Below, in pieces: positions 5,245 through 55,466 of a DNA stretch of 64,000 nucleotides. The DNA is from Alphaproteobacteria bacterium (GTDB taxonomy: Bacteria > Pseudomonadota > Alphaproteobacteria > UBA8366 > CAVOAK01). A program made the translations under genes and the position numbers. Where the stretch lies: assembly GCA_965217615.1 (NCBI GenBank), contig CBDCIT010000040.1, forward strand, positions 6,053 through 70,052, given 5' to 3'. Each line of letters starts with the position of its first letter. Within the stretch, counting starts at the first letter, position 1. The notes under the pieces are model-generated. The model worked only from the letters and a program-made list of their open reading frames with translations. It was not told where the DNA came from and searched no databases.

Positions 5245-6476
5245 CGATTTGTTGACATCGGGAGGGGTGTTCATGGGTCAGATAGGATTTTTTGATCTTT
5301 CGAAGCGGTATACCGGGCTGGACGCCAAGAACGAGCCTCTGGCGAAGATCGACGAGGTTGTTCCGTGGGAAGACTTCCGTGAGTGTTTGGATGCGGTGTG
5401 TCGGCGTTCGGACAAGGCGCGCAAGTCGCGGGCGGGACGCAAGCCGTGGGACGCGGTGGTGATGTTCAAGACGATCATTCTGAGCGCACTCTACAATCTG
5501 TCGGACGATCAGGTTGAGCATCAGATCCGGGATCGCCTGTCGTTCATGCGGTTTTTGGGGTTGGGTCTGGAGGACCGGGTTCCCGATGCCAAGACAGTGT
5601 GGCTGTACCGCGAACAGTTGACGCAAGCTGGGGAGATCGAGACCTTATTCGAGACGTTCGATGGCCACCTGAAGGATCAGGGCTATCTGGCGATGGGCGG
5701 CCAGATCATCGACGCCTCGATCGTGGCGGTGCCCAAACAGCGCAACAGCCGCAAGGAGAACGCGGGGATAAAGGCTGGCGAGACGCCGGAATGCTGGCAG
5801 GATAAGCCGGCAAAGCGGCGCCAAAAGGATGTCGAGGCGCGGTGGACCAAGAAGCACGGCAGGAGCCATTACGGCTACAAGAACCATGTCAACGTGGACC
5901 GTCGGCACAAGCTGGTGCGGCGCTATCAGGTGAGCGACGCGGCGACGCACGACAGTAAGGTTCTCGACGATATCCTGGATGGGGACAACACGGCCTTGGG
6001 CGTATGGGCGGACAGCGCTTATCGCTCGGCGGGGATCGAGGCGGCGCTGAAGAAGAAGGGGTTGAGGAGCCGGATCCATCGCAAAGCCCGCCGCAACAAG
6101 CCGCTGAGCGAGCGCGAGAAGCAAGGCAACAAGACCCGTTCGTCCGTTCGGGTCCGCGTCGAGCATGTTTTCGGGGCCCAGAGCAACGACATGGGCGGGA
6201 CGCTGCGGCGTAGTGTCGGGCTGGCGCGGGCAAAGGCTCGGATAGGGCTGAAGAACCTCGCCTACAACATGCGCCGTCTGGTCCAACTGAACCGCCTCGC
6301 CGCGGCGGTGTGACAATACTCTGAGTAGGAGATCGCCTGGGCACGGTCTTGAAGCGGAAATAGCTCAATTGGAGCGCGGGAAACTCCCGGAAATCCCGGT
6401 GCCAGCATGGCCGCAGACGGCCACAGCCCGTTTAACCAATCATCCTCTGTCAAATCGCGAATTCTTAGAGGTGCCC
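5189..6476 (+). mobile_element. IS5-family (IS5-group) insertion sequence, 1,288 bp
   Basis: 12-bp perfect terminal inverted repeat GGGCACCTCTAA / TTAGAGGTGCCC, extending imperfectly to about 25 bp. The flanking direct repeat is TTAT (5185..5188 and 6477..6480); its register is ambiguous by 1-2 nt. Confidence 0.85.
5273..6313 (+). CDS. IS5-family DDE transposase
   Basis: 346 aa starting at ATG 5273 after GGGAGGGG. It shows the N-terminal MGQIGFFDL...PWDAVVMFKTIILSALYNLSDDQ block and the C-terminal ADSAYRS / VRVRVEHVFG blocks typical of the IS5 group. Confidence 0.9.
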   Translation: MGQIGFFDLSKRYTGLDAKNEPLAKIDEVVPWEDFRECLDAVCRRSDKARKSRAGRKPWDAVVMFKTIILSALYNLSDDQVEHQIRDRLSFMRFLGLGLEDRVPDAKTVWLYREQLTQAGEIETLFETFDGHLKDQGYLAMGGQIIDASIVAVPKQRNSRKENAGIKAGETPECWQDKPAKRRQKDVEARWTKKHGRSHYGYKNHVNVDRRHKLVRRYQVSDAATHDSKVLDDILDGDNTALGVWADSAYRSAGIEAALKKKGLRSRIHRKARRNKPLSEREKQGNKTRSSVRVRVEHVFGAQSNDMGGTLRRSVGLARAKARIGLKNLAYNMRRLVQLNRLAAAV

Positions 6477-6527
6477 TTATGGTGTTCGGGATCTCGACCT
6501 GACTTATCTCTCGATACGTTGTTGTCG

Positions 6528-7424
6528 TTACGGTGCCAGTTTTTCATCCTCGTAAACACCGAAATATCGGTTCCCCACGTTGCGTTGCGCGGTGTAAATC
6601 GAATCCGGATCGACCGGATCTGGCAAAGGGATTCGGACCGGCACGGCGACCATCCGTGGATCGATCGTCGGTCTTCCTGCGATCATGCGGTCGTCGAAAT
6701 CTTCCAGCGACTTGAACGCCGCGTAGCCGCCGGAGAGCGGCCATGAGTCGGCGGCCGCAAGATCGTAAAGCAGCAGGCGTCGGTCCTTGCCAGATCGGTT
6801 GAGGTCGGAACCGTGCACGGCCCGCACGTGATGGAGCGTAATCGAACCCGCCGGTCCGGTCAGCTTTGTAGCTCGCGAGAAATCGGCGCCGCTCGTGACC
6901 GCGTCCATCGCGGCACAAAATCGACCGTCGCGATGGTGGTCGTATATCGGACCGCGGTGACTTTGCGGCAAAACCATCAACGGACCGTTTTCTTCCGTCA
7001 TGGCGTCCAGCATGATGCCGACCGTCAACTGATCGTCGTTGGTGCTGGGTACGAACGCCCAGTCCTGATGCCACTCGATCGCGGCGCCGAAGCCCGCGTA
7101 TTTGTTGTTTATCTTAGAGGACTTGAGCCGAATGTCCGGGCCGATCAATTGTTCAACAATTTCAACGATTTTCGGACTGCTCACCGTCTCCCAGAACAGC
7201 GGCGAGATCTGATGCGGACGTTTGATGCGGTGCACCCGCGGATGCTCCGGCGAATGCGACTCCTCAAGATCGTAAACCGTGTCGTTCTTCGTGACGTCGC
7301 TTGACAGTTCGGTGATCTCTTCGGTTTTCGCGACGAGCGCTGCGATTTCGGCCTGTGACAGCACGTTCTCGACGACGAGAAAACCATATTCCCGATAGTG
7401 GGCGATTTGCTGCGGGGTCAACAT
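6528..7424 (-). CDS. phytanoyl-CoA dioxygenase (PhyH) family Fe(II)/2-oxoglutarate oxygenase
   Basis: N-terminus is MLTPQQIAHYREYGFLVVENVL, with WHQDWAF and HHVRAVHGS motifs. The start was chosen at ATG 7424. Confidence 0.8.
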   Translation of the reverse strand: MLTPQQIAHYREYGFLVVENVLSQAEIAALVAKTEEITELSSDVTKNDTVYDLEESHSPEHPRVHRIKRPHQISPLFWETVSSPKIVEIVEQLIGPDIRLKSSKINNKYAGFGAAIEWHQDWAFVPSTNDDQLTVGIMLDAMTEENGPLMVLPQSHRGPIYDHHRDGRFCAAMDAVTSGADFSRATKLTGPAGSITLHHVRAVHGSDLNRSGKDRRLLLYDLAAADSWPLSGGYAAFKSLEDFDDRMIAGRPTIDPRMVAVPVRIPLPDPVDPDSIYTAQRNVGNRYFGVYEDEKLAP

Positions 7425-7562
7425 TGCGTGTCGCGTCACTCGATCCAACGGCATTCTAGACCAGGGCAATTTCAGTGATTCAATAGCATGGACGTTTTGT
7501 GGAGACCAGGGAGGCCTGCGCTGGGCCGAGGATAGAGCGGTGCGGCCGTCTGCCGGCTGCGG

Positions 7563-8880
7563 TCAGTCGCCCGCGCGGTTGCTCGTCTTTGAGACCACCA
7601 GCAGGGCGACGGTTTGCAGCACGGCCGCGACGAGGCTCAGCGCGAAAACGGCGGCGAAGTTGAATGTGATGGCGATGCCAGCGCCCAACACTGGAAACAG
7701 CGCCGCCGGCGCAACAAGGGCGTTGAAGTAGCCGCTATAGGCCGGGCGCAGGTCCTGCGGCGATATTTCCATCAGATACCCGATATAGGCGATGGCACGG
7801 CCGTTGCCGACGGCCCCGAGAACAAAGAAAACGGTGGCGAACCAGGGTAGCAACCAGGGTGAACCGGACGTGCCGACCGCCATCCAAGGGAGCATGGCGA
7901 TCGGGCCGACCACATTGAGGGCGGAGACCAACCGCAGGAGGCTCAGTTTTCCGCGGCGGTCGCCCCACCAGCCCCAGAGCGTGTTTGAGAGCAGTGCGCC
8001 TATGGTTTGCGCGCCGAGTAGAATTCCGACGAATGGGATCACGCGTTCCCCCGGTGCGACTTGGAGAATGTAAAATGGAAGCGCCATGGATACAGCTCCA
8101 GCCAGCCATTGCACGTAAAGAAATGTGCGAAAGCGCCGATCCTCTTTGAGGACGGCAATGCCCTGTCCTAGAAACGATTTGAAACCACGGGGAGCTTGCG
8201 CTGGTAAAGGCGCTGGGCTTTCTGTCGCAGATACGAAAAACACGGCCGAAAGTGCAAGGGTCACCGCACCGACAGAGAGTGTGGCGGCATAGCTTGGAAA
8301 AAAATGCGTAGCGGCGCAGTAGTTCATGCGCAGCGCCGGCAACGATGAGCGCCAGGATGCCGCCGCCGAAAAATCGTAGAGCCAATAGCCGGCTGCGGCG
8401 CGACGACGGTACGGACCGGGCGACGATATCGTTGTAGGGAACGCCGACAATACCGCTGACGAACCCATAGAGGGTCCAGAGGACGAAAAACGCCGCTATA
8501 ATGATGATCCCCGGTAGATTGGCGCCGAACCAAAGGAGCATGGCAATTGCCGCGAGGCAGGCGGCTCGGCCAAACGCGCCGAATTTGTAGTAGGGCATTC
8601 GTCGTTTCCGACGCTGCGCCAGATATGAGACGATGATTTGTGGAAACAGCCAGCCGTATCGTGTGATGGCAGCTGCAATACCGACCGCCAGCGAGCTTCC
8701 CGTCAAGCCTTGAACAAGCGCGGAGACAATGGTGTTTGCCTCCACCGAGGCAACACCACCCTGAAAGAACACGCCAGAGGCTGCGAAGCGCCAAAAGTTG
8801 CCGGTTTCGCCCGGTGGGTCACTTTGCTTGTCATCATCTGCGGCCGGGCTTGAACCGTCAGTTGACAAGGGCGTCCCCAT
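7563..8880 (-). pseudogene. MFS transporter, frameshifted (1,318 nt, one nt too many)
   Basis: Two overlapping ORFs (7735..8880 and 7563..8468) each carry half of a 12-TM MFS-like protein. Removing one A from the A7 run at 8298..8304 gives a continuous 438-aa frame (..HELLRRYAFFPSYAATLSVGA..). Confidence 0.7.
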
Positions 8881-17026: not shown

Positions 17027-18420
17027 GGCTGTGTCTCGAAAGTGGTGGAAATTTGAGGATGGCGTAATCTCCGGGTGACAAGACAACCACCCAACCGGCG
17101 GCTAGCACCGCCAAGGAGATCACGCCATGAAGAACACTACCGAGACTTCCGCGCTTTCGCTACTGGCCAATGACGCCGGCTATGATCCGCTCGAGGACCG
17201 GCTGCGGGAGAACATCAGATCCACGATCGAGGCCGTTTTTGAGGAGGAACTTGCGCAGTTTCTCGGGCGCTGCCGATACGGTCGAGAGGACGCGCTTCGG
17301 CAAGGGTATCGGAACGGGCACCGGGAGCGGCAACTGACGGGGACATTCGGGACCGAGAGGGTGAGCGTGCCGCGTGCACGGATCGTTGAGGAAGACGGTC
17401 GGGCGTCGGAATGGCGTTCGCGGGCGCTGCCGCGCTACCAGCGGCTGACCAGAAAGGCCGAGGCGCTGATCGCTTCGGTGTATCTGTCCGGAACCAACAC
17501 GCGGCGGGTGAAACGCGCGCTGTTCGGGCTCTTCCGGGGTGCTGTGAGCAAGGACGTTGTGAGCCGGGCGTGGCGCAAGGTGAAGGTCGATTGGGACGCC
17601 TGGTGCAGCCGTGGCCTCGCGGATGAGGATATCGTTCGGCTGATCCTTGACGGCACTGTGATCAAGACCCGACTGGATCGCAAGGCCACCAACATCTCGG
17701 TTCTCGCGGCTATAGGGGTGCGCCGGGATGGCCAGAAGGTCTTGCTTTCGATCGGGAATATGGGCGGAGAAAGCCAGGCGGCGTGGCGCCAGTTCCTCGA
17801 CGACCTTGATGCGCGTGGACTGAAACGGCCCGGGTTTGTCATCGTCGATGGCGCGCCGGGACTGGAGGCGGCTCTGTCGGCGCTTTGGGGCGATGACCTT
17901 CCCGTTCAACGCTGCACCGTGCACAAGCACCGCAACCTTCTGGGTCATGCTCCCAAACACATGCATGACGAGCTGAGCGAAGATTACCGCGATATGATCT
18001 ATGCCGACACTGCCTCCGAGGTGGAAACCCGCCACAAGGCGTTTGTCCGCAAGTGGCGGCTGAAATGCAGGGCCGTCGCGGACAGCCTCGCAGAAGCGGG
18101 CGACAAGCTCTTTACCTTCACGCGCCTGTCCAAGAGCCAATGGAAATCAGCCCGAACGACCAACGCCATTGAGCGTCTCAACGAGGAGTTCAAGCGCCGG
18201 ATCAAAACACAGACCGTGCTGCCGTGTCCCGAAACAGTGCCGATGCTCCTCTGGGCGCTCCTCGCTTCCGGCCAAATCCAGATGCGCAAAGTCGATGGAT
18301 GGGAAACCCTCGATCAGCTAATCGCCGACGAAACCCTTGACCGAGCGGCCTGACCGCCGCAAAACTCAGCCCGCTCGGAGAGGCGCCAAAACCAATTTCC
18401 ACCACTTTCGAGACACAACC
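17027..18420 (+). mobile_element. IS256-family insertion sequence, copy 2 (1,394 bp)
   Basis: 27-bp terminal inverted repeats with one mismatch. The 8-bp target duplication GGCGTCAA is at 17019..17026 and 18421..18428. Confidence 0.95.
17127..18353 (+). CDS. IS256-family DDE transposase
   Basis: 408 aa, near-identical to the ORFs at 3..1229 and 30049..31275. Confidence 0.92.
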   Translation: MKNTTETSALSLLANDAGYDPLEDRLRENIRSTIEAVFEEELAQFLGRCRYGREDALRQGYRNGHRERQLTGTFGTERVSVPRARIVEEDGRASEWRSRALPRYQRLTRKAEALIASVYLSGTNTRRVKRALFGLFRGAVSKDVVSRAWRKVKVDWDAWCSRGLADEDIVRLILDGTVIKTRLDRKATNISVLAAIGVRRDGQKVLLSIGNMGGESQAAWRQFLDDLDARGLKRPGFVIVDGAPGLEAALSALWGDDLPVQRCTVHKHRNLLGHAPKHMHDELSEDYRDMIYADTASEVETRHKAFVRKWRLKCRAVADSLAEAGDKLFTFTRLSKSQWKSARTTNAIERLNEEFKRRIKTQTVLPCPETVPMLLWALLASGQIQMRKVDGWETLDQLIADETLDRAA

Positions 18421-19596: not shown

Positions 19597-20398
19597 CTAT
19601 GCGCTGAGACGGAGCTTCTCATCTTGCATCGTATCTTGCGGCAGTATGGCGGCATTGCTTTGGACGACGACCAGCGGCTCTGCGACGGTGGCTCTTGTGC
19701 CGACGCTGTGGCGACGCATTGCCTGCTGGAAGAAAGCCCATCTTTTGCTTGCGGACTGCACGGCATAAGGTGCCGCGAACATCGCTGCGGCAATCGCCAG
19801 ACCCCAGGTGAACACACCGGCAAAGACGACACAGAGCGTTAATGTGGCGATGCCGAACAATCTGGCGCCTGCTGTCCTGCTGAGGCGAATGTAGGCAACG
19901 ACGGAAAGCGTGTAGAGAATGAAGAAGTTCTGTCCGGCGATCCTCAAGAGGTCACTGAGACTCCAGAATCCCATGCCATAACCAAAGAGCACGAAACAGA
20001 GGAGAGCCGCGAGCATCGCAATCGCTGGTCGGGGTTCCGCACGACGTAACGTTCCGAGCGCAAGCCGCTTAGGAATCCAACCTTGGCGGCCGATATCGAA
20101 TATCAGCCGCGACGCGGCCCAACACGCACCATTTAAGTTGGCAGTGATGATCGCCAAAACGACGATGGTGAGAACAGGCCAAGCCGCCGCCGCCGTTGTG
20201 ACGGCTTGGATCACAGCGAGATATGGCGCCTTTTCAAGCAGCGGGTGTCCCAACGGTACCAGCGCCTGCACGGCAAGCGACGCGCCGAGATAGAGGACAA
20301 CGACGAGGACGAAACTCACGGCTACCGCCAATGGAAAGTCCCGGCGAGGATTTTTGAACTCCTCCGCCGTGAACGACAGCATCTCCCATCCGGTATAG
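19597..20398 (-). pseudogene. APC-family amino-acid permease, 3' fragment (5' part removed at IS boundary)
   Basis: Only the C-terminal ~265 residues are present (YTGWEMLSFTAEEFKNPRRDFPLAV..). The frame runs directly into the IS5/IS1182-like copy A left end at 20399. Confidence 0.75.
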
Positions 20399-21319
20399 CA
20401 GCCCGTTGATTAAGTCGGCGCCGTCTGATTCTCTGGTTCCCTGATTTGCAGGGGGATTCGCCGATGGCGATGGGACGGCAGAAGGATGGTCAGGGGGACC
20501 TGATGGTGAGCTGGTCGGAGATGCCGCGCTCTCCGGGTCATGTGTTTTATGACCGCTTGCAGTCGGTGCTGATCGAGGGCGGCTTCGACGCCTTTGCCGA
20601 GGCGAGCTGCCGGCCTTATTACGCGGCCCGGATGGGCGCGCCCTCGGTGCCGCCCGGGCGCTATTTCCGGATGCACCTGGTGGGCTACTTCGAGGGCATC
20701 GACAGCGAGCGCGGTCTGGAGTGGCGCTGCTCGGACTCGCTTTCGCTGCGGGCGTTCCTGCGACTGGGGAGCCGTGATCGGGTACCGGACCATTCCTGGC
20801 TGTCACGGAGCCGCACGCGCCTGCCCCATGAAGTCCACGCGGCGGTCTTCGACTGGGTTCTGGTGCTGATCGCCGAGGCGGGGCTGATCAAGGGCGAGCG
20901 CATCGGCGTCGATGCCTCGACCATGGAGGCCAACGCGGCGCTGCGGAACATCGTGCGGCGCGCCAACGGCGAAGGCTACCGGGAGATGCTGGAGCGCCTG
21001 GCCCGGGAAAGCGGCGTCGAGACACCCACGGCCGAGGATCTGGCGCGTCTGGAGCGGAAGCGCAAGGGCAAGAAGCTTTCCAACACGGATTGGGTTTCGA
21101 AGAGCGACCCCGAGGCCAAGATCGCCAAGATGAAGGACGGCACGACGCATCTGGCCTACAAGCCCGAGCACGCGGTGGATCTGGACACCGGCGCGGTGGT
21201 GGCGGCCGAGCTGCACCCGGCCGATGAGGGCGACACCACGACGCTTTCCAAGACCCTGGCGAAGGCCGAGGCAAACCTCGGGGCGGTGGATGCGGCACCG
21301 ACGGCGGAGGACCCGGCCG
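20399..21319 (+). mobile_element. IS5/IS1182-like insertion sequence, copy A, left part
   Basis: Starts with the 17-bp terminal repeat CAGCCCGTTGATTAAGT. Near-identical to copies B and C up to 21319, where the IS66-like element is inserted. Confidence 0.9.
20464..21319 (+). pseudogene. IS5/IS1182-like transposase, copy A, N-terminal part (interrupted)
   Basis: Matches the 23535 and 53978 ORFs up to ..AAPTAEDPA. The 762-aa ORF in the track then reads through into unrelated antisense sequence. Confidence 0.9.
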
Positions 21320-21378
21320 GTAAGTGTTCGTTCAGGCCGTGGAATCAGCGCGGACGTTTCTATCGGCCCCGGTGGATC

Positions 21379-22314
21379 TTAGCGATTGAGGGTGCGTTTC
21401 CAGTCCCGTCGCAGGGGCCGGAGCCAGACATCCTTTTTCGGCTTGTCGTACTGCCTGTCCCGGTCGTAGCGCCCGCGCCCCTGGGTGGCGCCGACATGGA
21501 TCCAGCCCGATGCCCTGTAGACCGCGCCGGTATATCGCGGGGTCTCTACGAAAGTCTCGATGAGCACGGGCGTGGTGTTGTAGCGCTCGGTCCAGTCGTC
21601 GGGCAGGCGCTGGCGGATGAGGGCGAGGATGTGCGAACCCAGGTTGGGGATCTTGATCCAGGGCAGGATCAGGAACCTCGGGTTGTCGACCACGAAGGGA
21701 AGGTTCTTCTCGCGCAGTTGCCGTGTCCATCTGATGAAGGTGTCGCGCGGGGCAAGCTTCCACGCGGCGGTGGAGAAGCCGAGCATGGCGAGTGGCCAGC
21801 CGTTTCGGTCATGGACGGCATAGCGCATCTGGGCGCCGACCAGGGTCTTGTATCCGAGATAGTGGTAGCGGGCGACGAACTCGTTCCAGAGCTTGCTCTC
21901 CCGGGTGCCGCGCACGACGGGGCGCAGGTCGAGCGGACGGATCTCGTCGAGGGTTGTCGGGGCCGGGAACAGCGGCGGTTCGGTGTCCGGCCCGAAGACG
22001 ATCGGCCCGGGCCGGTTCTGCCGTCCCTGCGGCGCCGGCAGGGCGATCAGGCCGTCCCTGTGCATGGCCAGCATGGTGACCCTGGCCATCATGTCCTTGA
22101 GGCCGCCGTCGGGCTTGAACCAGCCGATGCGCCGGCAGAACTCCTTCGACAGCATATGGCGGTTCAACGGCGGCGGCCCGGCGATCAGCGCGCGCAGCAG
22201 CGCCATTTCCCCGGCGGTGAAGTCGCGGCCGTAATAACGGCACCCGATCGCGCCGGTCACGCCGGCGCCATGAGTTCGCGCCTGCGCTCCTCGCTCATCG
22301 ACCATGGCAGCCAC
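21379..22314 (-). CDS. DUF4338 (DruA-like) family protein encoded inside the IS66-family element
   Basis: 311-aa ORF with FVARYHYLGY, MRYAV, DNPRFLILPW and LIETFVETPRYTGAVYRASGW. I recognise these from memory as the DUF4338 family. It overlaps the transposase stop by 58 nt. The start (22314 or 22305) is uncertain. Confidence 0.65.
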   Translation of the reverse strand: MAAMVDERGAQARTHGAGVTGAIGCRYYGRDFTAGEMALLRALIAGPPPLNRHMLSKEFCRRIGWFKPDGGLKDMMARVTMLAMHRDGLIALPAPQGRQNRPGPIVFGPDTEPPLFPAPTTLDEIRPLDLRPVVRGTRESKLWNEFVARYHYLGYKTLVGAQMRYAVHDRNGWPLAMLGFSTAAWKLAPRDTFIRWTRQLREKNLPFVVDNPRFLILPWIKIPNLGSHILALIRQRLPDDWTERYNTTPVLIETFVETPRYTGAVYRASGWIHVGATQGRGRYDRDRQYDKPKKDVWLRPLRRDWKRTLNR

Positions 22315-23465
22315 GACGACAGGTCGCCCGGCGGTTTACGATCGTTCTCCGCGCACGCTGCGAGCCACGCGTCCAGCCAGCTCAGGATGTCGATGCCATT
22401 CATCGAGAGCGTGCCCACCACCGAGTACATGATCGCCGTGAACCTGGCGCCGTCCTCGCTGTCGGAACCGAACGACAGCCGTCGCCCTATGGCCGGACCT
22501 TGTAAAACTCTTTCGGCGCGATTGTTATCCAGAGGCACCTGCGGGCGGTCGACGAACACGCTCAGCCCTTCGCGATGGTTCAGCAGCGAACGCAGCGCCT
22601 TGCCCTCGCGCGCCGGGTCCGGCAGGCCGGCAAGCTCCAGTTCGGCCTGCGCGAACAGGCCGTCGAGCGCCTCCTTCAACGCGCCCTGCGCCGCGTCGAA
22701 CGCCGGCGTCTGGCGCTCGATCCCGGGGTCGTAATGAGCCAGCCTCGCCTCGTTCAGGCGGTAGATCGACGCGATCCGCTCGATCCATCCCTGGCACCAG
22801 TCCGTCAGTCTCACCTGGCCGGCCGCGCACTCGACAAAATCGCGGCGCATATGTGACCAACAGAATGCAAGGGTCACCTTGCCCTCGCGAAGGCGAGCGA
22901 GTCGCTTGTAGGCGCTATAGCGGTCGCAGACGATGACCGTATCGAGGAGGTCTTCGGCGAATAGCTTCCCGGCGGCCTCGGCACTGCGGCTCGGATCGAT
23001 GTGGAAGTAGACCGCGTCGCTGCTCACCGAGGCCCACAGCCAGGCACGGCTCGACCGGTCTTCCCCGCGAAGCTCCTGGACGCGCCAACCGGTCTCGTCG
23101 GCATGGCGCAGCACCGCCTTGTTCTGGTGCGCAAGGATCGCTGCGGCCAGCGGCTCGAACAGCGGCACGAACCGCTTCAGGCTGTCGGCCAGGGTCCCCG
23201 GCGAGACCGGCAGCCCCTGGCTGGAGAACCACGCGGCAACCCGGTGCAGGGGGCGGAAGCAGGCACAGTGCTCGAACAGGAAGCGCGCCCAGAAGCTGGT
23301 CCCGTAGAGCGTCCTGGGGAACAGCCGCGGCACCGGGCGCGCCGAGACTTCCATGGGCGACGACGCGCACTCGCAGGCCCTGCGCCAGCGCGACCGGCGG
23401 ATCACCCGCTTGTGGGCCTTGACCTCGATCTCGACGAGGGTGGATTCCTCGGCGCCGTTCGGCGC
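22257..23465 (-). pseudogene. IS66-family transposase, C-terminal segment (catalytic region)
   Basis: Contains HADETGW, CDRYSAYK, AFCWSHMRRDF and PLDNNRAER blocks. The frame continues from 24914 once IS copy B and one ATAG are removed. Confidence 0.85.
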
Positions 23466-23469
23466 ATAG

Positions 23470-24913
23470 CAGCCCGTTGATTAAGTCGGCGCCGTCTGAT
23501 TCTCTGGTTCCCTGATTTGCAGGGGGATTTGCCGATGGCGATGGGACGGCAGAAGGCTGGTCAGGGGGACCTGATGGTGAGCTGGTCGGAGATGCCGCGC
23601 TCTCCGGGTCATGTGTTTTATGACCGCTTGCAGTCGGTGCTGATCGAGGGCGGCTTCGACGCCTTTGCCGAGGCGAGCTGCCGGCCTTATTACGCGGCCC
23701 GGATGGGCGCGCCCTCGGTGCCGCCCGGGCGCTATTTCCGGATGCACCTGGTGGGCTACTTCGAGGGCATCGACAGCGAGCGCGGTCTGGAGTGGCGCTG
23801 CTCGGACTCGCTTTCGCTGCGGGCGTTCCTGCGACTGGGGAGCCGTGATCGGGTACCGGACCATTCCTGGCTGTCACGGAGCCGCACGCGCCTGCCCCAT
23901 GAAGTCCACGCGGCGGTCTTCGACTGGGTTCTGGTGCTGATCGCCGAGGCGGGGCTGATCAAGGGCGAGCGCATCGGCGTCGATGCCTCGACCATGGAGG
24001 CCAACGCGGCGCTGCGGAACATCGTGCGGCGCGCCAACGGCGAAGGCTACCGGGAGATGCTGGAGCGCCTGGCCCGGGAAAGCGGCGTCGAGACACCCAC
24101 GGCCGAGGACCTGGCGCGTCTGGAGCGGAAGCGCAAGGGCAAGAAGCTTTCCAACACGGATTGGGTTTCGAAGAGCGACCCCGAGGCCAAGATCGCCAAG
24201 ATGAAGGACGGCACGACGCATCTGGCCTACAAGCCCGAGCACGCGGTGGATCTGGACACCGGCGCGGTGGTGGCGGCCGAGCTGCACCCGGCCGATGAGG
24301 GCGACACCACGACGCTTTCCAAGACCCTGGCGAAGGCCGAGGCAAACCTCGGGGCGGTGGATGCGGCACCGACGGCGGAGGACCCGGCCGAATGCGTCGC
24401 CGACAAAGGTTATCACTCACGGGCGGTCTTGAGGGCTCTGGACGACAGTCCCTGGAAGACCCGGATCGCGGCGCCCAAGCAGACCGGCTTTTCGCGCTGG
24501 CACGGTGATGAGGCGGCGCGGCGCGCGGTCACCAACAACCGTGCGCGGCTCAAGTCCGGGGTCGCCCGCGAGGCCTTCAAGCTGCGCGCCGAGATCGTCG
24601 AGCGCTGCTTTGCCCACAACCTCGATCGTGGCGGCATGCGACGAACCTGGCTGCGCGGGCGAGAGAATGTGCACAAGCGATACCTGCTCCACGTCGCCGG
24701 CCACAATCTATCGTTACTGATGCGCCAGCTCATCGGCGCCGGCACCCCGCGGGAGGCCGTGGCGGGCGGATATGGCGGTATTTTCGTTCTGCTCACGCCC
24801 ACCGGGGCCATGCTGGTGGCACGGGGGGTTTCGCAAAGCGGCCAGTCGGCTTTCGCCGCCGCATTCCTCATCTGGGGGTGAGAGCCGGAAAAAGCCACTT
24901 AATCAACGGGCTG
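23470..24913 (+). mobile_element. IS5/IS1182-like insertion sequence, copy B (1,444 bp)
   Basis: 17-bp terminal inverted repeats CAGCCCGTTGATTAAGT. The 4-bp duplication ATAG is at 23466..23469 and 24914..24917. It is inserted in the IS66 transposase gene. Confidence 0.93.
23535..24881 (+). CDS. IS5/IS1182-like DDE transposase (about 448 aa)
   Basis: N-terminal DUF772-like block (FYDRLQSVLIEGGFDAF..GRYFRMHLVGYFEGIDSERGLEW), KMKDGTTHLAYKPEHAVD, and C-terminal ADKGYHS..IVERCFAH. The start is ATG 23535 or TTG 23517. Confidence 0.88.
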   Translation: MAMGRQKAGQGDLMVSWSEMPRSPGHVFYDRLQSVLIEGGFDAFAEASCRPYYAARMGAPSVPPGRYFRMHLVGYFEGIDSERGLEWRCSDSLSLRAFLRLGSRDRVPDHSWLSRSRTRLPHEVHAAVFDWVLVLIAEAGLIKGERIGVDASTMEANAALRNIVRRANGEGYREMLERLARESGVETPTAEDLARLERKRKGKKLSNTDWVSKSDPEAKIAKMKDGTTHLAYKPEHAVDLDTGAVVAAELHPADEGDTTTLSKTLAKAEANLGAVDAAPTAEDPAECVADKGYHSRAVLRALDDSPWKTRIAAPKQTGFSRWHGDEAARRAVTNNRARLKSGVAREAFKLRAEIVERCFAHNLDRGGMRRTWLRGRENVHKRYLLHVAGHNLSLLMRQLIGAGTPREAVAGGYGGIFVLLTPTGAMLVARGVSQSGQSAFAAAFLIWG

Positions 24914-25662
24914 ATAGGGCTGCCCGCACCGTCCGCAGACGCACGCATCCGGCGGCGGGTTGTACTCTTCGGTTCGCTCCTCGAGCCCGGGCCGCTGGGT
25001 GCGGCCGTGGCCGGGCGCGCCGTGCTGCTGGCCGCGCTTACGCTCCGAGCGCGGTTTGTCCTGCTGCTCGCTCTTGCGGCCGTAGAGCGCTCTCGACAGC
25101 ACCGCTCCGGTCGCGCGAAGCCTCTCAAGCTGGGCTTCCAGCGTCTCGATCCGGTTCCGTGACGTCTTCGCGCCCTTGCGCAGCCGGGCGTTCTCCCGGG
25201 ACAGCGACTTGATCGTGGCCTTCTGGCGCCGCGACCTTCGCAGGGCCCTGCGGAGATCGGCGTCTGCAACGGACAGCGACTTCGACAACGTCTTCCCGAC
25301 CGCTCGAAGCCCGGCAAGCTCGGACTCGAGTGCCTTCCTGATCGCGCGAAGTTTGGCAGGCTGAACCTCCAGCGCCGCTTTCCGGGTCTCCAACTTCCGC
25401 ACGGTCCTGTGCAGCCGGGCATTCTCCTTGCGCAGCGTGTTGAGCGTCGTCTTCTGGCGCCGCGATCGCCTCAACGCCGCGCGCAGTTGAGTGGCCTCGT
25501 CGCACGGAAGCTTCGACAGCGTCGCCCCGGCCGCCCGGAGCTTGACGAGCCGGGCCTTCAACTTCTCCTTCCCGGCCTTGGACACCTCCAGGGCATGGCG
25601 CAGCCAGAAAACCTCGTCGGACAGCGACCGGGCACGGGCCTCGCTGTGGCCCAATATCCTCA
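24914..25662 (-). pseudogene. IS66-family transposase, middle segment
   Basis: Coiled-coil repeats (LRRALRRSRRQK.. twice), then LYGRKSEQ and CVCGRCG as in the IS66 TnpC N-terminal region. Bounded by the intron 5' end (25663) and IS copy B (24913). Confidence 0.8.
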
Positions 25663-26179
25663 GTGCGCCGTGGAAAGGTGCGTTTTCCTGGTGGGTGCGA
25701 ACCCCACCCAACAATTGTCGCTTTCGGTTGGTAGCAGCCAGGGCGGCCTACGGAGGTAACGATGTAGACCGAAGCACTCTGGTGACAAAGGGCTGTGTTG
25801 AGCAGTTTAGCGACCATGCAGGCGTGTGCCAGGCTAACTGGCAGAGGATAGCCGGTGAGAGTCCGGTAGGGAGTAGAGGTTAACCACCACTCTCGCCCCG
25901 AGTCATGCGCCGGTCGTCGCGAGGCGGCAGGTGAAGCGTTGACAGGGGTGCGGATGGGCAGGGCAACGGAGCATCGAAAGGTTGCTTGTCTGGAGAGCCG
26001 AGACTGTGCCTGCGGTCGAAGGCAACACCGACATCACCGACATGGTGAGGGGATGTTGGGCTCCACGGTGTCGAAGAACCCATGCACGTTCGTACGTCCT
26101 CATTGCCGGGACCTGGGAGGTCTCCATTTTGCCCCGAAGTCGTAACGGGGCCGCAAAGGAAAGGATGTATCCGTAACCG

Positions 26180-28003
26180 ATGACGCACGGAATGGAGAAG
26201 TCGGATGAGGGAATAGTACCGATGAAAGCGACGAACAAGGGCGCGCAAGCGCCTGCGGAGTCGCCGGAGGGAAGTGCCTCAACCAAGGGGAATCCGCGAG
26301 ATCAAAGCACGTGCCGGACGCAGTGTCGGGAAAGCGTGTCACAGGCGGTCGCGTGGATACGGCAGGCTGTAACGAGGAAACCGCAGGAGAAACTCACTGC
26401 GCTGCTACACCATGTCACGATAGATGCCCTGACGTGGGCGTTCTTCGAGTTGAAGAAGGACGCCTCGCCGGGGGTGGATGGGATGACGTGGGGAGAGTAC
26501 GAGGAAGGGCTGGAAGAGCGGCTGCTCGACCTTCACGGACGCGTGCACTCGGGAGCGTATCGGGCGCGGCCATCCCGGCGGGTCGAAATACCCAAACCGG
26601 ATGGCGGGACACGACCGCTCGGCATTGCCGCACTGGAAGACAAGATTGTCCAGAAAGCGGTGGTGGAAGTTATCCTGACGCCAATTTACGAGCCGGATTT
26701 TCTCGGGTTCAGCTACGGGTTCCGACCGGGGCGTGGGGCGCACGACGCGCTTGATGCTCTGGCCTTCGGGATAGAACGGCGCAAGGTCAACTGGATAGTG
26801 GACTGTGACATCCGCGGATTTTTCGACAATGTCTCTCGGGACTGGCTGGTCCGGTTTCTTGAGGATCGCATCGGAGACAAGCGGGTCATCAGGCTGATCG
26901 CCAAATGGCTGAATGCCGGCGTCATGGAAGATGGCGAGTGGCGGGATAACTTGCGAGGAACGCCTCAGGGCGCGGTGGCTTCACCGATTCTCGCGAACAT
27001 CTACCTGCACTACGTCCTCGACCTCTGGTTCCAGAAGAAATGGCGCACCCGTGTGGCCACGGGGGCAACAATCATCGTGCGGTATGCCGATGACTTCGTG
27101 GTCGGGTTCCAACGCAAACAGGACGCGGAGCGGTTTCTCCACGATCTCAAGGAAAGGCTGGGCCAGTTTGAGCTTGAGCTGCATCCAGACAAGACCCGAC
27201 TCATCGAGTTTGGCAGGTTCGCGATGGCGGACCGCCGGGCACGAGGGGAACGGCGACCGGAGACCTTCGAGTTCCTTGGATTCACGCACTATTGCCGGAA
27301 GAAGAGGAACGGGAAATTCGGACTGGGGCGCAAGCCGATAGCGAAGCGGGTCACGCGGACCCTGAATCGGATCAAAGGGGAGCTCCGTAGGCGGATGCAC
27401 GAAGATGTCCACGAAACCGCGCGCTGGCTGGGTCAGGTGGTCAATGACTTCTGTGCGGAGATCGTTTCCTATGCAGATGACTTCTGTGTTCTCGGCAAGG
27501 CCCCGGCGGCAGACATGCTGCTGGCGGTTACCCGGCTCATGGAAGGGCTGAAGCTGACGGTCAACGAGCAGAAGACCCGATGCCTGCAATGCCCAAGGGA
27601 ACCAATGGCGTTCCTCGGCTACCGGTTCGGATGGAACTACCGCCGGAACGGAGGCGACGCCTATATCGGCAATCGACCGAGCAAGGTGAGCGTTCAGGGC
27701 ATCTGCCGTAAAATCAGTGAGCAAACCGAACGACGCTATGGGCTGCAGGATCCTGAATGGATGGTCAGCAAGCTCAACCGGATGATATCCGGATGGGCGC
27801 AGTACTTCCAGTTAGGGCAGGTCAGCCCCGCCTATGCGGCGGTCGATGCACACGCGACGAAGCGGCTGCGACAGTGGCTCTGTCGGAAGCACAAGGTCAG
27901 GAACGGAAAGTACGTGCGCTTTCCGGACGATCGACTGTGGGAACACTATGGCCTTACCTGCCTTGCGCCGAGGACCAGGGGCTTTCCGTGGGCGAAGGCA
28001 TGA
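26180..28003 (+). CDS. group II intron reverse transcriptase/maturase, apparently chimeric (607 aa)
   Basis: RT motifs PKPDGGTRPLGI, FSYGFRPGRGAHDAL, GTPQGAVASPILANIYL and VRYADDFVVGF, plus the start of a thumb (ARWLGQVVN). These are followed by a second motif-5-to-X block (SYADDFCVLGK..FLGYRF..LNRMISGWAQYF). Confidence 0.85.
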   Translation: MTHGMEKSDEGIVPMKATNKGAQAPAESPEGSASTKGNPRDQSTCRTQCRESVSQAVAWIRQAVTRKPQEKLTALLHHVTIDALTWAFFELKKDASPGVDGMTWGEYEEGLEERLLDLHGRVHSGAYRARPSRRVEIPKPDGGTRPLGIAALEDKIVQKAVVEVILTPIYEPDFLGFSYGFRPGRGAHDALDALAFGIERRKVNWIVDCDIRGFFDNVSRDWLVRFLEDRIGDKRVIRLIAKWLNAGVMEDGEWRDNLRGTPQGAVASPILANIYLHYVLDLWFQKKWRTRVATGATIIVRYADDFVVGFQRKQDAERFLHDLKERLGQFELELHPDKTRLIEFGRFAMADRRARGERRPETFEFLGFTHYCRKKRNGKFGLGRKPIAKRVTRTLNRIKGELRRRMHEDVHETARWLGQVVNDFCAEIVSYADDFCVLGKAPAADMLLAVTRLMEGLKLTVNEQKTRCLQCPREPMAFLGYRFGWNYRRNGGDAYIGNRPSKVSVQGICRKISEQTERRYGLQDPEWMVSKLNRMISGWAQYFQLGQVSPAYAAVDAHATKRLRQWLCRKHKVRNGKYVRFPDDRLWEHYGLTCLAPRTRGFPWAKA

Positions 28004-28013
28004 TCTCGTCGGA

Positions 28014-28046
28014 AAGCCGGATGCCTGAGATAGGCATGTCCGGTTT
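28014..28046 (+). ncRNA. group II intron ribozyme domain V
   Basis: AAGCCGGAUGCCUGAGAUAGGCAUGUCCGGUUU folds as a 9-bp lower helix with the AGC triad at positions 2-4 (third pair G.U), a 2-nt AU bulge, a 4-bp upper helix, and a GAGAU loop. Confidence 0.7.
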
Positions 28047-28144
28047 GATGAGCGGGGGTGAGTGAAACGTGGCTATGGTTGAGGCGGAGGCACCGGCACC
28101 TGGCGAAAGCCGTCGGCAAACAGCGACTCCCTTGATCTACGGCA

Positions 28145-28880
28145 GGGCGCGCCTCCCCTCGACTCTACCCTCCCGAGGGAGCCGAAGGGACTCGCTGGAC
28201 AGCTTCCTGGCGGTCTCCCTGATGCTCTCCGTCCTCTGCTTCTCCTGGCCGAGGCGGTTGTTCAGCTGGAGGATCCGCTTGTCCCGCCGGACCACCTCAT
28301 TGTTGAGCCGGGTGATCTCCTTGCGTAGCGTCCTGATGGTGTCTTTCTGATCCGGAGATCGCTCCAGGGCGGTGCGCCGCCGACGGGTCTCCGCGGGCCG
28401 CGGGCGGATCGTGCCCTGTCGGGCCTCCGGTGCGACCAGAGCCTTGCGCAGTCGTGCGATTTCCTTACGCAGCGCCTCGATCTTGCTGCTCTCATTCGAC
28501 TCGATGCCGGCTTCGAAGAGGAGCGTCTCCAGGCGCGCCACCTCGGCCTGCAAGGAAGGCACATCCCTTGCCGCGCGGCGAGCTTCCTTCGTCTCCTCGA
28601 CGGCCTCGCTCAACCTGCCCCGGCAAGCTTTGAACCGCGACTTCCACGCACCGGCATCGGTACGCGAGGCCACTTCCGCCCAGCGTAGCTCTTCCGCGTG
28701 CGCTTCGGCCGCGTCTGCCCGCGCCCGTTCCCGCTCACACTGTGACCGCCAGCCGCGCGGCGCGCGCTCCGGCACCGACACGGGGGACGACCGGACCCCG
28801 CCATTACCCTCGGCCAGCGTCAGGTCGGTGCCAAAATCCTCGTCCAGAACCGCCATGCGCACGACGATAGCGCATGGCAA
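28145..28880 (-). pseudogene. IS66-family transposase, N-terminal segment (coiled-coil extension)
   Basis: 245 codons plus 1 nt, Arg/Glu-rich heptad-like sequence. Joins in frame to 25662 (..VEGRRAL|RILGHSE..). The start is ATG 28880 or 28856. Confidence 0.7.
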
Positions 28881-28979
28881 ATTGCGTTACCAGCAGAAAG
28901 ACAGCCCCTTGTGGGGCTTCGCCTCAACGCGGGAGATGCGCCTGACGACACCCATTCCACGGCCTGAACGAACACTTAC

Positions 28980-29478
28980 CCCGGCCGAATGCGTCGCCGA
29001 CAAAGGTTATCACTCACGGGCGGTCTTGAGGGCTCTGGACGACAGTCCCTGGAAGACCCGGATCGCGGCGCCCAAGCAGACCGGCTTTTCGCGCTGGCAC
29101 GGTGATGAGGCGGCGCGGCGCGCGGTCACCAACAACCGTGCGCGGCTCAAGTCCGGGGTCGCCCGCGAGGCCTTCAAGCTGCGCGCCGAGATCGTCGAGC
29201 GCTGCTTTGCCCACAACCTCGATCGTGGCGGCATGCGACGAACCTGGCTGCGCGGGCGAGAGAATGTGCACAAGCGATACCTGCTCCACGTCGCCGGCCA
29301 CAATCTATCGTTACTGATGCGCCAGCTCATCGGCGCCGGCACCCCGCGGGAGGCCGTGGCGGGCGGATATGGCGGTATTTTCGTTCTGCTCACGCCCACC
29401 GGGGCCATGCTGGTGGCACGGGGGGGTTCGCAAAGCGGCCAGTCGGCTTTCGCCGCCGCATTCTTCATCTGGGGGTGA
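28980..29478 (+). pseudogene. IS5/IS1182-like transposase, copy A, C-terminal part
   Basis: ECVADKGYHSRAVLRALDD... to the stop at 29476..29478, near-identical to copies B and C. Confidence 0.9.
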
Positions 29479-29510
29479 GAGCCGGAAAAAGCCACTTAAT
29501 CAACGGGCTG
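28980..29510 (+). mobile_element. IS5/IS1182-like insertion sequence, copy A, right part
   Basis: Resumes exactly where copy A was broken (..GACCCGGCCG|AATGCGTC..) and ends with the terminal repeat ..ACTTAATCAACGGGCTG at 29510. Left plus right parts minus the 8-bp duplication give 1,444 bp. Confidence 0.9.
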
Positions 29511-29893
29511 GTGAGCCTGTTGTCACGCTTGCGCGCAAAGTGGGCCTCTCGCGAAGTGCCGTCCTGGAGCGGCTGGTCCGGCTCGAACGCGATCAAATCA
29601 TCACCGGCTATACTGTGCGCCTTGGCAAGTCGGTCGAGCGGGCGCCCGTGTCGGCGTACCTCTTCCTTTATCTCGATGGACCGATTTGCGAGCGTGTGGC
29701 GCCGGTTATCGCAAGAATTCCCGAGGTCAAGAAAAGCCAGTCCGTCGGTGGAGAGATCGACATGATCCTCCTAGTTGAAACCAACGATCTTCATGGCTGG
29801 AACGACGTGCGGAACCAGGTCGAATCCGTAAGCGGCGTTCGCAAGGTGCAGACCGGTATTATTCTCGCGGACAGGTTCGACCGCACGCATTAG
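29511..29893 (+). pseudogene. Lrp/AsnC-family transcriptional regulator, 5'-truncated
   Basis: Starts mid-HTH directly at the IS end (GEPVVTLARKVGLSRSAVLERLVRLERDQIITGYTV..), so about 20 N-terminal codons are missing. The C-terminal ligand-binding domain is intact. Confidence 0.75.
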
Positions 29894-29948: not shown

Positions 29949-31342
29949 GGCTGTGTCTCGAAAGTGGTGGAAATTTGAGGATGGCGTAATCTCCGGGTGA
30001 CAAGACAACCACCCAACCGGCGGCTAGCACCGCCAAGGAGATCACGCCATGAAGAACACTACCGAGACTTCCGCGCTTTCGCTACTGGCCAATGACGCCG
30101 GCTATGATCCGCTCGAGGACCGGCTGCAGGAGAACATCAGATCCACGATCGAGGCCGTTTTTGAGGAGGAACTTGCGCAGTTTCTCGGGCGCTGCCGATA
30201 CGGTCGAGAGGACGCGCTTCGGCAAGGGTATCGGAACGGGCACCGGGAGCGGCAACTGACGGGGACATTCGGGACCGAGAGGGTGAGCGTGCCGCGTGCA
30301 CGGATCGTTGAGGAAGACGGTCGGGCGTCGGAATGGCGTTCGCGGGCGCTGCCGCGCTACCAGCGGCTGACCAGAAAGGCCGAGGCGCTGATCGCTTCGG
30401 TGTATCTGTCCGGAACCAACACGCGGCGGGTGAAACGCGCGCTGTTCGGGCTCTTCCGGGGTGCTGTGAGCAAGGACGTTGTGAGCCGGGCGTGGCGCAA
30501 GGTGAAGGTCGATTGGGACGCCTGGTGCAGCCGTGGCCTCGCGGATGAGGATATCGTTCGGCTGATCCTTGACGGTACTGTGATCAAGACCCGACTGGAT
30601 CGCAAGGCCACCAACATCTCGGTTCTCGCGGCTATAGGGGTGCGCCGGGATGGCCAGAAGGTCTTGCTTTCGATCGGGAATATGGGCGGAGAAAGCCAGG
30701 CGGCGTGGCGCCAGTTCCTCGACGACCTTGATGCGCGTGGACTGAAACGGCCCGGGTTTGTCATCGTCGATGGCGCGCCGGGACTGGAGGCGGCTCTGTC
30801 GGCGCTTTGGGGCGATGACCTTCCCGTTCAACGCTGCACCGTGCACAAGCACCGCAACCTTCTGGGTCATGCTCCCAAACACATGCATGACGAGCTGAGC
30901 GAAGATTACCGCGATATGATCTATGCCGACACTGCCTCCGAGGTGGAAACCCGCCGCAAGGCGTTTGTCCGCAAGTGGCGGCTGAAATGCAGGGCCGTCG
31001 CGGACAGCCTCGCAGAAGCGGGCGACAAGCTCTTTACCTTCACGCGCCTGTCCAAGAGCCAATGGAAATCAGCCCGAACGACCAACGCCATTGAGCGTCT
31101 CAACGAGGAGTTCAAGCGCCGGATCAAAACACAGACCGTGCTGCCGTGTCCCGAAACAGTGCCGATGCTCCTCTGGGCGCTCCTCGCTTCCGGCCAAATC
31201 CAGATGCGCAAAGTCGATGGATGGGAAACCCTCGATCAGCTAATCGCCGACGAAACCCTTGACCGAGCGGCCTGACCGCCGCAAAACTCAGCCCGCTCGG
31301 AGAGGCGCCAAAACCAATTTCCACCACTTTCGAGATACAACC
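29949..31342 (+). mobile_element. IS256-family insertion sequence, copy 3 (1,394 bp)
   Basis: Same terminal repeats as copy 2. The 8-bp target duplication CGGCTGGA is at 29941..29948 and 31343..31350. The insertion is intergenic. Confidence 0.95.
30049..31275 (+). CDS. IS256-family DDE transposase
   Basis: 408 aa, near-identical to the other two copies. Confidence 0.92.
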   Translation: MKNTTETSALSLLANDAGYDPLEDRLQENIRSTIEAVFEEELAQFLGRCRYGREDALRQGYRNGHRERQLTGTFGTERVSVPRARIVEEDGRASEWRSRALPRYQRLTRKAEALIASVYLSGTNTRRVKRALFGLFRGAVSKDVVSRAWRKVKVDWDAWCSRGLADEDIVRLILDGTVIKTRLDRKATNISVLAAIGVRRDGQKVLLSIGNMGGESQAAWRQFLDDLDARGLKRPGFVIVDGAPGLEAALSALWGDDLPVQRCTVHKHRNLLGHAPKHMHDELSEDYRDMIYADTASEVETRRKAFVRKWRLKCRAVADSLAEAGDKLFTFTRLSKSQWKSARTTNAIERLNEEFKRRIKTQTVLPCPETVPMLLWALLASGQIQMRKVDGWETLDQLIADETLDRAA

Positions 31343-55356: not shown

Positions 55357-55466
55357 CTAAGACGGTTCGCAAACCGCGCTTGCGGCGTGCGTCGTGATGT
55401 CCCAATGGTTATCTGGATTCGAGGCCTAGTTGCCTACGCTAAGCTGACCAGACTGGTGGATTAGAA

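Follow-up and report, generated by a model that had tools for sequence, protein, structure and literature searches.

A DUF4338 gene coupled to the transposase gene is the second gene of an IS66-type insertion sequence and of its relatives

We analyzed a 64-kb stretch of DNA from an alphaproteobacterium (GenBank assembly GCA_965217615.1, contig CBDCIT010000040.1), hereafter the window, which carries an IS66-family insertion sequence (IS) in which the transposase gene is followed by a gene for a protein of the DUF4338 family. This gene pair had been singled out in a preceding reading of the letters alone (the sequence-only reading). The element spans positions 21320-28979, which is wider than the coordinates given in that reading, with its genes encoded on the minus strand. 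Its 26-bp perfect inverted repeat (IR) GTAAGTGTTCGTTCAGGCCGTGGAAT, which starts GTAAGTG, is present in exactly two copies in the 64 kb, inverted with respect to each other (chance expectation 0), and the octamer CCCGGCCG is found at both ends as an 8-bp target-site duplication (TSD), just as the sequence-only reading had described for the ends. The two halves of the disrupted host element, an IS1182-like IS (20396-21319 and 28988-29513), rejoin perfectly after removal of one octamer, and the mobile unit is hence 21320-28979. The parts of the element and its borders are as follows.

20396-21319, plus strand: left part of IS1182/IS5-like copy 1, the insertion target of the IS66-type element (right part, 28988-29513)
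21312-21319, no strand: 8-bp TSD CCCGGCCG, the original copy, which belongs to the IS1182-like element that was disrupted (read from the sequence)
21320-21345, no strand: terminal IR at the end downstream of the DUF4338 gene (perfect inverted pair in the window)
21379-22260, minus strand: DUF4338 gene in its most likely extent, 293 aa from the GTG at 22260 (Pfam, starts of homologues)
22257-22260, minus strand: GTGA overlap between the transposase TGA and the probable DUF4338 GTG (ATGA in 78/91 and GTGA in 13/91 related copies)
22257-23469, minus strand: transposase fragment 3, the C-terminal DDE_Tnp_IS66 catalytic domain (PF03050, NF033517)
24918-25662, minus strand: transposase fragment 2, coiled coil and CxxC motif (ORF 24899-25714; colinear with intact relatives)
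28169-28856, minus strand: transposase fragment 1, N-terminal coiled coil, with the ATG at 28856 (reconstruction, alignment to the related locus L005)
28954-28979, no strand: terminal IR at the end upstream of the transposase (perfect inverted pair in the window)
28980-28987, no strand: 8-bp TSD CCCGGCCG, second copy (the host IS1182-like sequence resumes exactly after it)

Inserts aside, the transposase gene and the DUF4338 gene are the only genes between the IRs, which gives the layout IR, transposase, DUF4338, IR, flanked by the 8-bp duplications and without tnpA or tnpB. We detected no tnpA/tnpB-type open reading frame (ORF) or Pfam match, and ~97 nt separate the inner edge of the IR from the transposase ATG at 28856, in line with the absence of these genes and the spacing of 99 nt reported earlier. 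The 59 nt that had been given for the distance between the DUF4338 stop and the left IR is correct only to the outer end of the element; to the inner edge of the IR it is 33 nt. Membership in the IS66 family, also proposed in the sequence-only reading, is supported by the transposase domain, the type of IR and the length of the TSD. The C-terminal transposase fragment matches DDE_Tnp_IS66 (PF03050) with E = 9e-57, as intact relatives do with E = 2e-58, and scores 247 bits against the NCBIfam model transpos_IS66 (NF033517), for which the cut-off is 180, and the ends are the GTAAG IRs of ~20-30 bp with an 8-bp TSD that are expected of the family.

The DUF4338 gene had been described as a 311-aa ORF, and that ORF exists (21379-22314, minus strand). 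Its assignment to DUF4338 was borne out by a hidden Markov model search against Pfam, which returned PF14236 (DruA/DUF4338) over residues 123-286 with E = 2.4e-38 and 132 bits; NCBIfam has no model that matches the protein. Homologues are numerous: one search gave 3678 matches, and a second gave 8124 clusters at 50% identity. Most of them are 293 aa long and start 18 codons inside the 311-aa ORF, nearly always at an ATG that forms ATGA together with the transposase TGA, and in the lineage of the window the corresponding codon is the GTG at 22260, forming GTGA. Judged by these starts, the gene most likely comprises 21379-22260 and encodes 293 aa. It follows from the position of the homologue starts that the overlap with the transposase gene is 4 nt and not the 58 nt originally reported, although the proposed translational coupling itself holds. 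A 4-nt overlap of stop and start codons is a classic arrangement for such coupling.

We then asked how regularly the two genes occur together. Through the DUF4338 protein we retrieved 78 genomic loci from Alphaproteobacteria, Gammaproteobacteria and one Bryobacterales metagenome-assembled genome (MAG), including many uninterrupted full-length copies, with up to at least 14 copies in one genome (a MAG). At least eight IS species (3230-3794 bp) could be delimited among them, each of which has both genes, its own 22-30-bp GTAAG IRs and matching 8-bp duplications at different sites; the IRs of these relatives start GTAAGCG, GTAAGCC or GTAAGGA, and matching 8-bp TSDs were found for ~30 related copies. 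Among copies ascertained through DUF4338, the ATGA/GTGA overlap is present in 91/91 and an intact 293-codon DUF4338 ORF in 90/91. Since this set had been ascertained through DUF4338, we repeated the test starting from the transposase, using 80 metagenome loci with relatives of the catalytic fragment (30-81% identity). Wherever the C terminus of the transposase and at least 300 nt downstream were available, DUF4338 lies directly 3' (68/68 loci), and this includes every locus long enough to contain the complete gene (59/59). No uninterrupted copy of the IS without DUF4338 was found, transposase-ascertained loci included.

The arrangement extends to more distant proteins. P0342 and P0311 (48-50% identity) follow a 546-aa IS66 transposase with a 4-nt overlap, and their flanks differ at each site, while P0287 lies directly after a 547-aa IS66 transposase with a 2-nt gap in place of the overlap. 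Flanking contexts differ at every insertion that we inspected. These findings show that the transposase and DUF4338 move and evolve as one unit and that, in a deep and widespread subgroup of IS66, DUF4338 is an integral accessory gene, inherited together with the transposase gene and translationally coupled to it. The sequence-only reading had asked whether the pair always moves together; it is kept in all transposase-led loci and across the IS species, and degradation of the ORF in other copies, named there as a ground for refutation, is not what we see.

The DUF4338 gene is also under purifying selection. Pairwise ratios of nonsynonymous to synonymous substitution rates between IS species are 0.16-0.29. 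When DUF4338 identity was compared with identity of the transposase DDE region in 13 elements, the two were strongly correlated (Pearson r 0.97 over 78 pairs, which are not independent of one another), and DUF4338 was the more conserved in 77/78 pairs and equal in the remaining one (for example 84% versus 66%, or 49% versus 36%). The association, with co-divergence, persists down to ~33-36% transposase identity. The DUF4338 protein is therefore under tighter constraint than the transposase beside it.

DUF4338 is not confined to the position downstream of an IS66 transposase. In-frame fusions of the two proteins exist, one of 810 aa (P0212) in a 25-member 90% cluster found in many samples, and another of 883 aa (P0192). 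In P0206 and P0238 (773 and 763 aa; clusters of 6 and 13 members), DUF4338 is N-terminal to a Tn5-like transposase with the domains Tnp_DNA_bind, DDE_Tnp_1 and Dimer_Tnp_Tn5. Free-standing DUF4338 genes also precede transposase genes with a 4-nt overlap, a Tn5-like one at L088 and a DDE_5/IS701-like one at L091. On plasmids of Candidatus Thiodictyon syntrophicum, one DUF4338 copy precedes an IS4/Tn5-like transposase, and another is fused to an ISAs1 family transposase according to the RefSeq annotation. These findings show that the DUF4338 module has been recruited by four DDE transposase families, to which it is coupled or fused. A separate case is the 510-aa protein P0020 (NCBI/ENA), a chimera in which the first ~290 residues, 84% identical to DUF4338 of the window, are joined to an ISAs1-type DDE_Tnp_1_assoc domain, which suggests a recent exchange of the module between IS families. 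Searches of the PLSDB plasmids gave no match to the element by megablast and only the two Thiodictyon plasmids by tblastn, even at E = 5, and by these searches the family is rare in cultured or plasmid data, and true DruA is too distant for tblastn to pick up.

In the window, the transposase is in three pieces with two clean secondary insertions between them. Aligning the window copy with an uninterrupted relative, L005, placed the borders of both inserts at single-base precision. The element of L005 occupies 4296-7995 (3700 bp), and its transposase (4419-7055) has 879 aa from its Met and a DDE domain at 529-818.

23470-24913, plus strand: nested IS1182/IS5-like IS, copy 2, with the TSD ATAG at 23466-23469 and 24914-24917
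25663-28168, plus strand: nested group II intron, GTGCG...CTAC, with a reverse transcriptase (RT)/maturase ORF at 26180-28003 (Rfam D1-D4; RVT_1, GIIM)

With both inserts removed, the element is 3706 bp long and has an open transposase frame of 891 codons. Because the group II intron is antisense to the transposase gene, splicing cannot remove it from the transposase mRNA, and because the gene is interrupted twice, the window copy is non-autonomous. The gene pair described in the sequence-only reading thus stands, in a copy inactivated by two nested insertions with its DUF4338 gene still intact. By the order of nesting, the IS66-type element entered IS1182-like copy 1 first, and IS1182-like copy 2 and the group II intron came later. 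At a related locus, L001 (6695-7995), only ~1.3 kb of an element is left, with a DUF4338 that is 99% identical. Intact transposases of the window lineage are long (open frames of 736-889 codons) because their N-terminal coiled coil, in which segments are repeated, reaches up to ~480 aa; the transposases linked to DUF4338 in more distant relatives have 507-547 aa.

We next considered what kind of protein DUF4338 might be. Searches of the Protein Data Bank (PDB) with the protein sequence and with the family profile gave no match. A model was taken from AlphaFold2 run on a 69-sequence alignment, with a mean predicted local distance difference test score (pLDDT) of 83.8; a single-sequence run was unusable (pLDDT 32.7). 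In the model, residues 1-68 make up a small domain of the order beta-beta-helix-helix-(beta-beta)-helix, which we read as winged-helix-like, residues 70-105 are a low-confidence linker, and residues 111-282 are predicted to follow the GNAT order b1-a1-a2-b2-b3-b4-a3-b5-a4-b6, into which two further helices are inserted after beta-3 and before beta-4. Foldseek matched the model to SpeG, RimI and PaiA (E 1e-6 to 1e-5, probability 1.00) and to viral GNATs (E = 3e-8). Phage Mu Mom (8bv8) was also matched with probability 1.00 and has the highest query-normalised TM-score (0.42) within the top 50. DUF4338 has independently been assigned as a GNAT domain in published work (PMC10853773).

Across all transposase contexts, the invariant residues are H133, Y134, R146, Y147, R172, D173, W178, R195, S209, D222, E235, Y248, W253, G257, T259, G261 and K276. 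From this conservation, H133, R146, Y147, R172, D173, R195, S209, E235 and Y248 are candidates for the active site. By their position in the model, E235 (beta-5) and Y248 (alpha-4) might correspond to the general base Glu103 and the general acid Tyr115 of RimI. An hhalign comparison of the family profile with Escherichia coli RimI was not significant (probability 0.13), so the Glu/Tyr mapping is read from the order of secondary structure elements. DUF4338 shares with RimI, SpeG, PaiA and Mu Mom the predicted fold and its strand and helix order; it differs from them in having no significant sequence similarity, the two-helix insertion between beta-3 and beta-4, an atypical acetyl-CoA motif and the extra N-terminal domain.

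The DruA-like character claimed in the sequence-only reading holds only at the level of the superfamily, and models specific to Druantia match weakly. PADLOC DruA1 reaches 20.9-21.1 bits (E ~4e-5) on the DUF4338 protein and covers query residues 138-235, the GNAT core only, and such weak DruA matches were obtained for 25/31 members of the DUF4338 family. No Druantia-like genes (druB, C, D or the DruE helicase) are present among the window ORFs of at least 400 aa, in accordance with the earlier remark that the window has no other Druantia component, and none were seen at the related loci that we inspected, where an IS66 transposase gene and unrelated genes adjoin DUF4338. DruA of Druantia type I, reportedly described by Doron et al. 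in 2018, has the DUF4338 core (PF14236) in common with the IS protein. In contrast, the IS protein has 293 aa and the DruA model a length of ~407, druBCDE are absent, and the context is an IS and not a defence island. By sequence, the window protein would be a distant superfamily relative of DruA and not a DruA.

On balance, we lean towards the reading that a distinct and widespread IS66 subgroup has DUF4338 as its obligatory second gene and that the product of this gene acts as an accessory protein partnering the transposase. Under this reading, the DUF4338 gene would be co-transcribed with the transposase gene, and both proteins would be made from the same message via the stop-start overlap. 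The DUF4338 protein would then partner the transposase at the DNA of the element, perhaps docking through its N-terminal domain, and the GNAT domain could acylate or bind the transposase or a DNA-bound factor, with the outcome that transposition is enabled or tuned. Both the biochemical activity and its target are what we infer for this protein.

Several observations weigh against this reading. A DUF4338 gene that is intact beside a broken transposase was found in 15 related copies, 16 with the window (a DUF4338-ascertained set), a pattern also compatible with a function outside transposition; the retention of DUF4338 where the transposase is deleted or interrupted could reflect either recent decay or selection on DUF4338 alone, in a sample that is biased towards DUF4338. 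A partner that is common to four unrelated transposase families may act on a host factor or on DNA and not on the transposase. At the level of the protein, a Pfam scan of the N-terminal 100 residues returned only PaaX, at E = 0.18, and the PDB searches and the RimI comparison gave no sequence-level match to a characterised acetyltransferase. The acetyl-CoA motif Q/RxxGxG/A has only a partial counterpart, PNL[G/A]S (residues 205-209, between b4 and a3, at the start of helix alpha-3), in which L207 and S209 are invariant.

Other roles can be envisaged for the gene, and the sequence-only reading had listed a transposition accessory factor, a stand-alone defence or addiction function and an undescribed IS66 subgroup; the evidence from coupling and fusion favours the accessory factor and the new subgroup over the other two. 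A defence or counter-defence function carried by the IS, directed at phages, plasmids or components of host defence, as is presumed for DruA in Druantia type I, and either benefiting the host or protecting the element, would account for the membership in Pfam DruA/DUF4338, for the weak but consistent DruA similarity in the family and for the genes that stay intact where the transposase is broken, as in the window. We consider it unlikely, since Druantia partners are missing from the window and the inspected neighbourhoods, the similarity amounts to only ~21 bits, flanking contexts differ at every insertion, and in-frame fusions to three transposase families, with four families coupled or fused, are hard to square with a stand-alone gene. 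Less likely still is a DNA-modifying GNAT like phage Mu Mom, which would mark the element, the donor site or the genome for restriction evasion or as a signal of transposition status. The rank of Mom by TM-score within the Foldseek top 50 and the putative DNA-binding N-terminal domain point in this direction, but Mom is one of ~200 GNAT matches with similar scores, has 15% identity, and the sequence bears no sign of a nucleobase substrate.

The GNAT fold would also be compatible with an addiction or toxin-like function that stabilises the IS, akin to the GNAT toxins of type II toxin-antitoxin systems, and for toxin-antitoxin modules within Tn3-family transposition modules there is precedent (bioRxiv 10.1101/848275). 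We regard such a function as very improbable here, because there is no antitoxin gene, with no more than two ORFs between the IRs of any IS species examined, the protein is ~120 residues larger than GNAT toxins, it is fused to transposases in many lineages, and more than 14 copies occur in one MAG without a partner gene. For these three alternatives, which we rank lower, it is the fusions and the missing partner genes that count against them. ISs with passenger genes are known (the tIS of ISfinder), and DUF4338 might have been captured once by one IS66 element for which it has no role. That is scarcely credible in view of the gene's presence in 68/68 transposase-led loci, the co-divergence down to ~33-36% transposase identity, the conserved start/stop overlap, the purifying selection and a conservation that exceeds that of the transposase. 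Incidental cargo is refuted by the transposase-led loci together with the coupled relatives.

Beyond IS66, a wider version of the accessory-protein reading can be put forward more tentatively. DUF4338, a helical domain joined to a GNAT enzyme, might be a general partner module of transposases that was recruited independently by at least four unrelated DDE families (IS66, IS4/Tn5-like, IS701-like and ISAs1) and that controls transposition through acyl transfer to the transposase, to a DNA-bound host factor or to DNA, with DruA as a domesticated offshoot. If true, such an origin would provide a first concrete clue to the signal or the activity of DruA. An evolutionary link with a partner of transposases points to hypotheses on the function of DruA in Druantia type I that can be tested, and the findings as a whole bear more broadly on what DUF4338/DruA proteins are. 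The name matters in practice as well: with PF14236 now called "DruA", genes of ISs may be mistaken for defence genes during annotation, and the numbers of Druantia systems counted in metagenomes would then be too high.

IS66 is a large IS family in which the chemistry of transposition and the roles of accessory proteins are poorly understood. Canonical members (IS66, IS679) have the order tnpA-tnpB-tnpC, with accessory genes coupled by overlapping stop and start codons. The window group resembles them in the DDE_Tnp_IS66 domain, the N-terminal coiled coil, the CxxC motif, the GTAAG IRs, the 8-bp TSD and the translational coupling. Unlike them, it has no tnpA and tnpB upstream of the transposase, its accessory gene lies downstream and encodes an unrelated protein with a predicted GNAT fold and an N-terminal helical domain, and the transposase of the window lineage has an unusually long coiled-coil N terminus of ~480 aa. 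Members with a single ORF form the ISBst12 group in the ISfinder classification. With these, compared by description only, the window group shares the lack of tnpA/tnpB and a transposase that alone bears the IS66 hallmarks, but the transposase is not its sole ORF, as every copy examined also has DUF4338, which is strictly conserved. A second gene that is co-inherited and co-expressed with the transposase is also found in IS21 (istB) and in the toxin-antitoxin modules of the Tn3 family, which differ in that the protein families are unrelated and that there is no ATPase or antitoxin here. In the literature on DUF4338/PF14236 together with IS66, and on other IS66 accessory genes, we found the association not described, though a named ISfinder example may exist; the IS66-type group with a DUF4338 partner is apparently uncatalogued. 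DUF4338 is a new class of IS66-family accessory gene. A clade in which a single partner with a predicted GNAT fold replaces tnpA/tnpB provides a simple two-gene system for studying the function of IS accessory proteins, and the ties of the same module to Tn5-like, IS701-like and ISAs1 transposases suggest a general, unrecognised layer of transposition control or element protection.

Two features of the 5' leader are of interest with regard to expression. Over the transposase start and immediately upstream of it (window 28850-28875, minus strand) lies a conserved element, CTGGTAACG, followed at 8-11 nt by the palindrome CCATGCGC-N9-GCGCATGG, the last ATG of which is the transposase start codon. 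It is present in 7/8 IS species compared, including the leaders of L005, L025, L032, L044, L063 and L076, and may serve as an operator, bound for instance by the N-terminal domain of the DUF4338 protein, or fold into an RNA hairpin that masks the start codon. Just inside the upstream IR (28903-28918, minus strand) there is a terminator-like hairpin, AGCCCC ACAA GGGGCT, followed by GTCTTTCTGC, which could block read-through transcription into the transposase. No sigma-70 consensus promoter was called in the 5' leader or at the transposase/DUF4338 junction.

At seven of the related loci (L006, L026, L035, L044, L062, L070 and L074) we found head-to-tail tandem arrays of two or three IS copies, 7-17 bp apart. 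In the L035 array the octamer GCCTACCC is present at the left, between the copies and at the right. Such arrays could be tandem-dimer intermediates or reflect a strong preference for insertion beside an existing end.

The group II intron has no match to Rfam domain V/VI (RF00029) at the gathering threshold, and its RT ORF (607 aa) has two segments of the YADDF type, as if the RT region were internally duplicated or chimeric. The IS1182/IS5-like IS is 1.45 kb long and encodes a transposase of 454 aa (DUF772 and DDE_Tnp_1) between IRs of CAGCCCGTTGATTAAGT. It is present in three copies in the window, at 20396-29513 (split), 23470-24913 and 53910-55359, with the TSDs ATAG for copy 2 and CTAA for copy 3. 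Copy 1 is unmatched (ATAG on one side, GTGA on the other), and this lack of a matching 4-bp duplication suggests rearrangement between copies. ORFs of identical length (408 aa) are found at 3-1229 (minus strand), 17127-18353 (plus strand) and 30049-31275 (plus strand), and we take the last of these to resemble an IS256-family transposase. With these ORFs and the other IS copies counted, the window is an IS-dense region.

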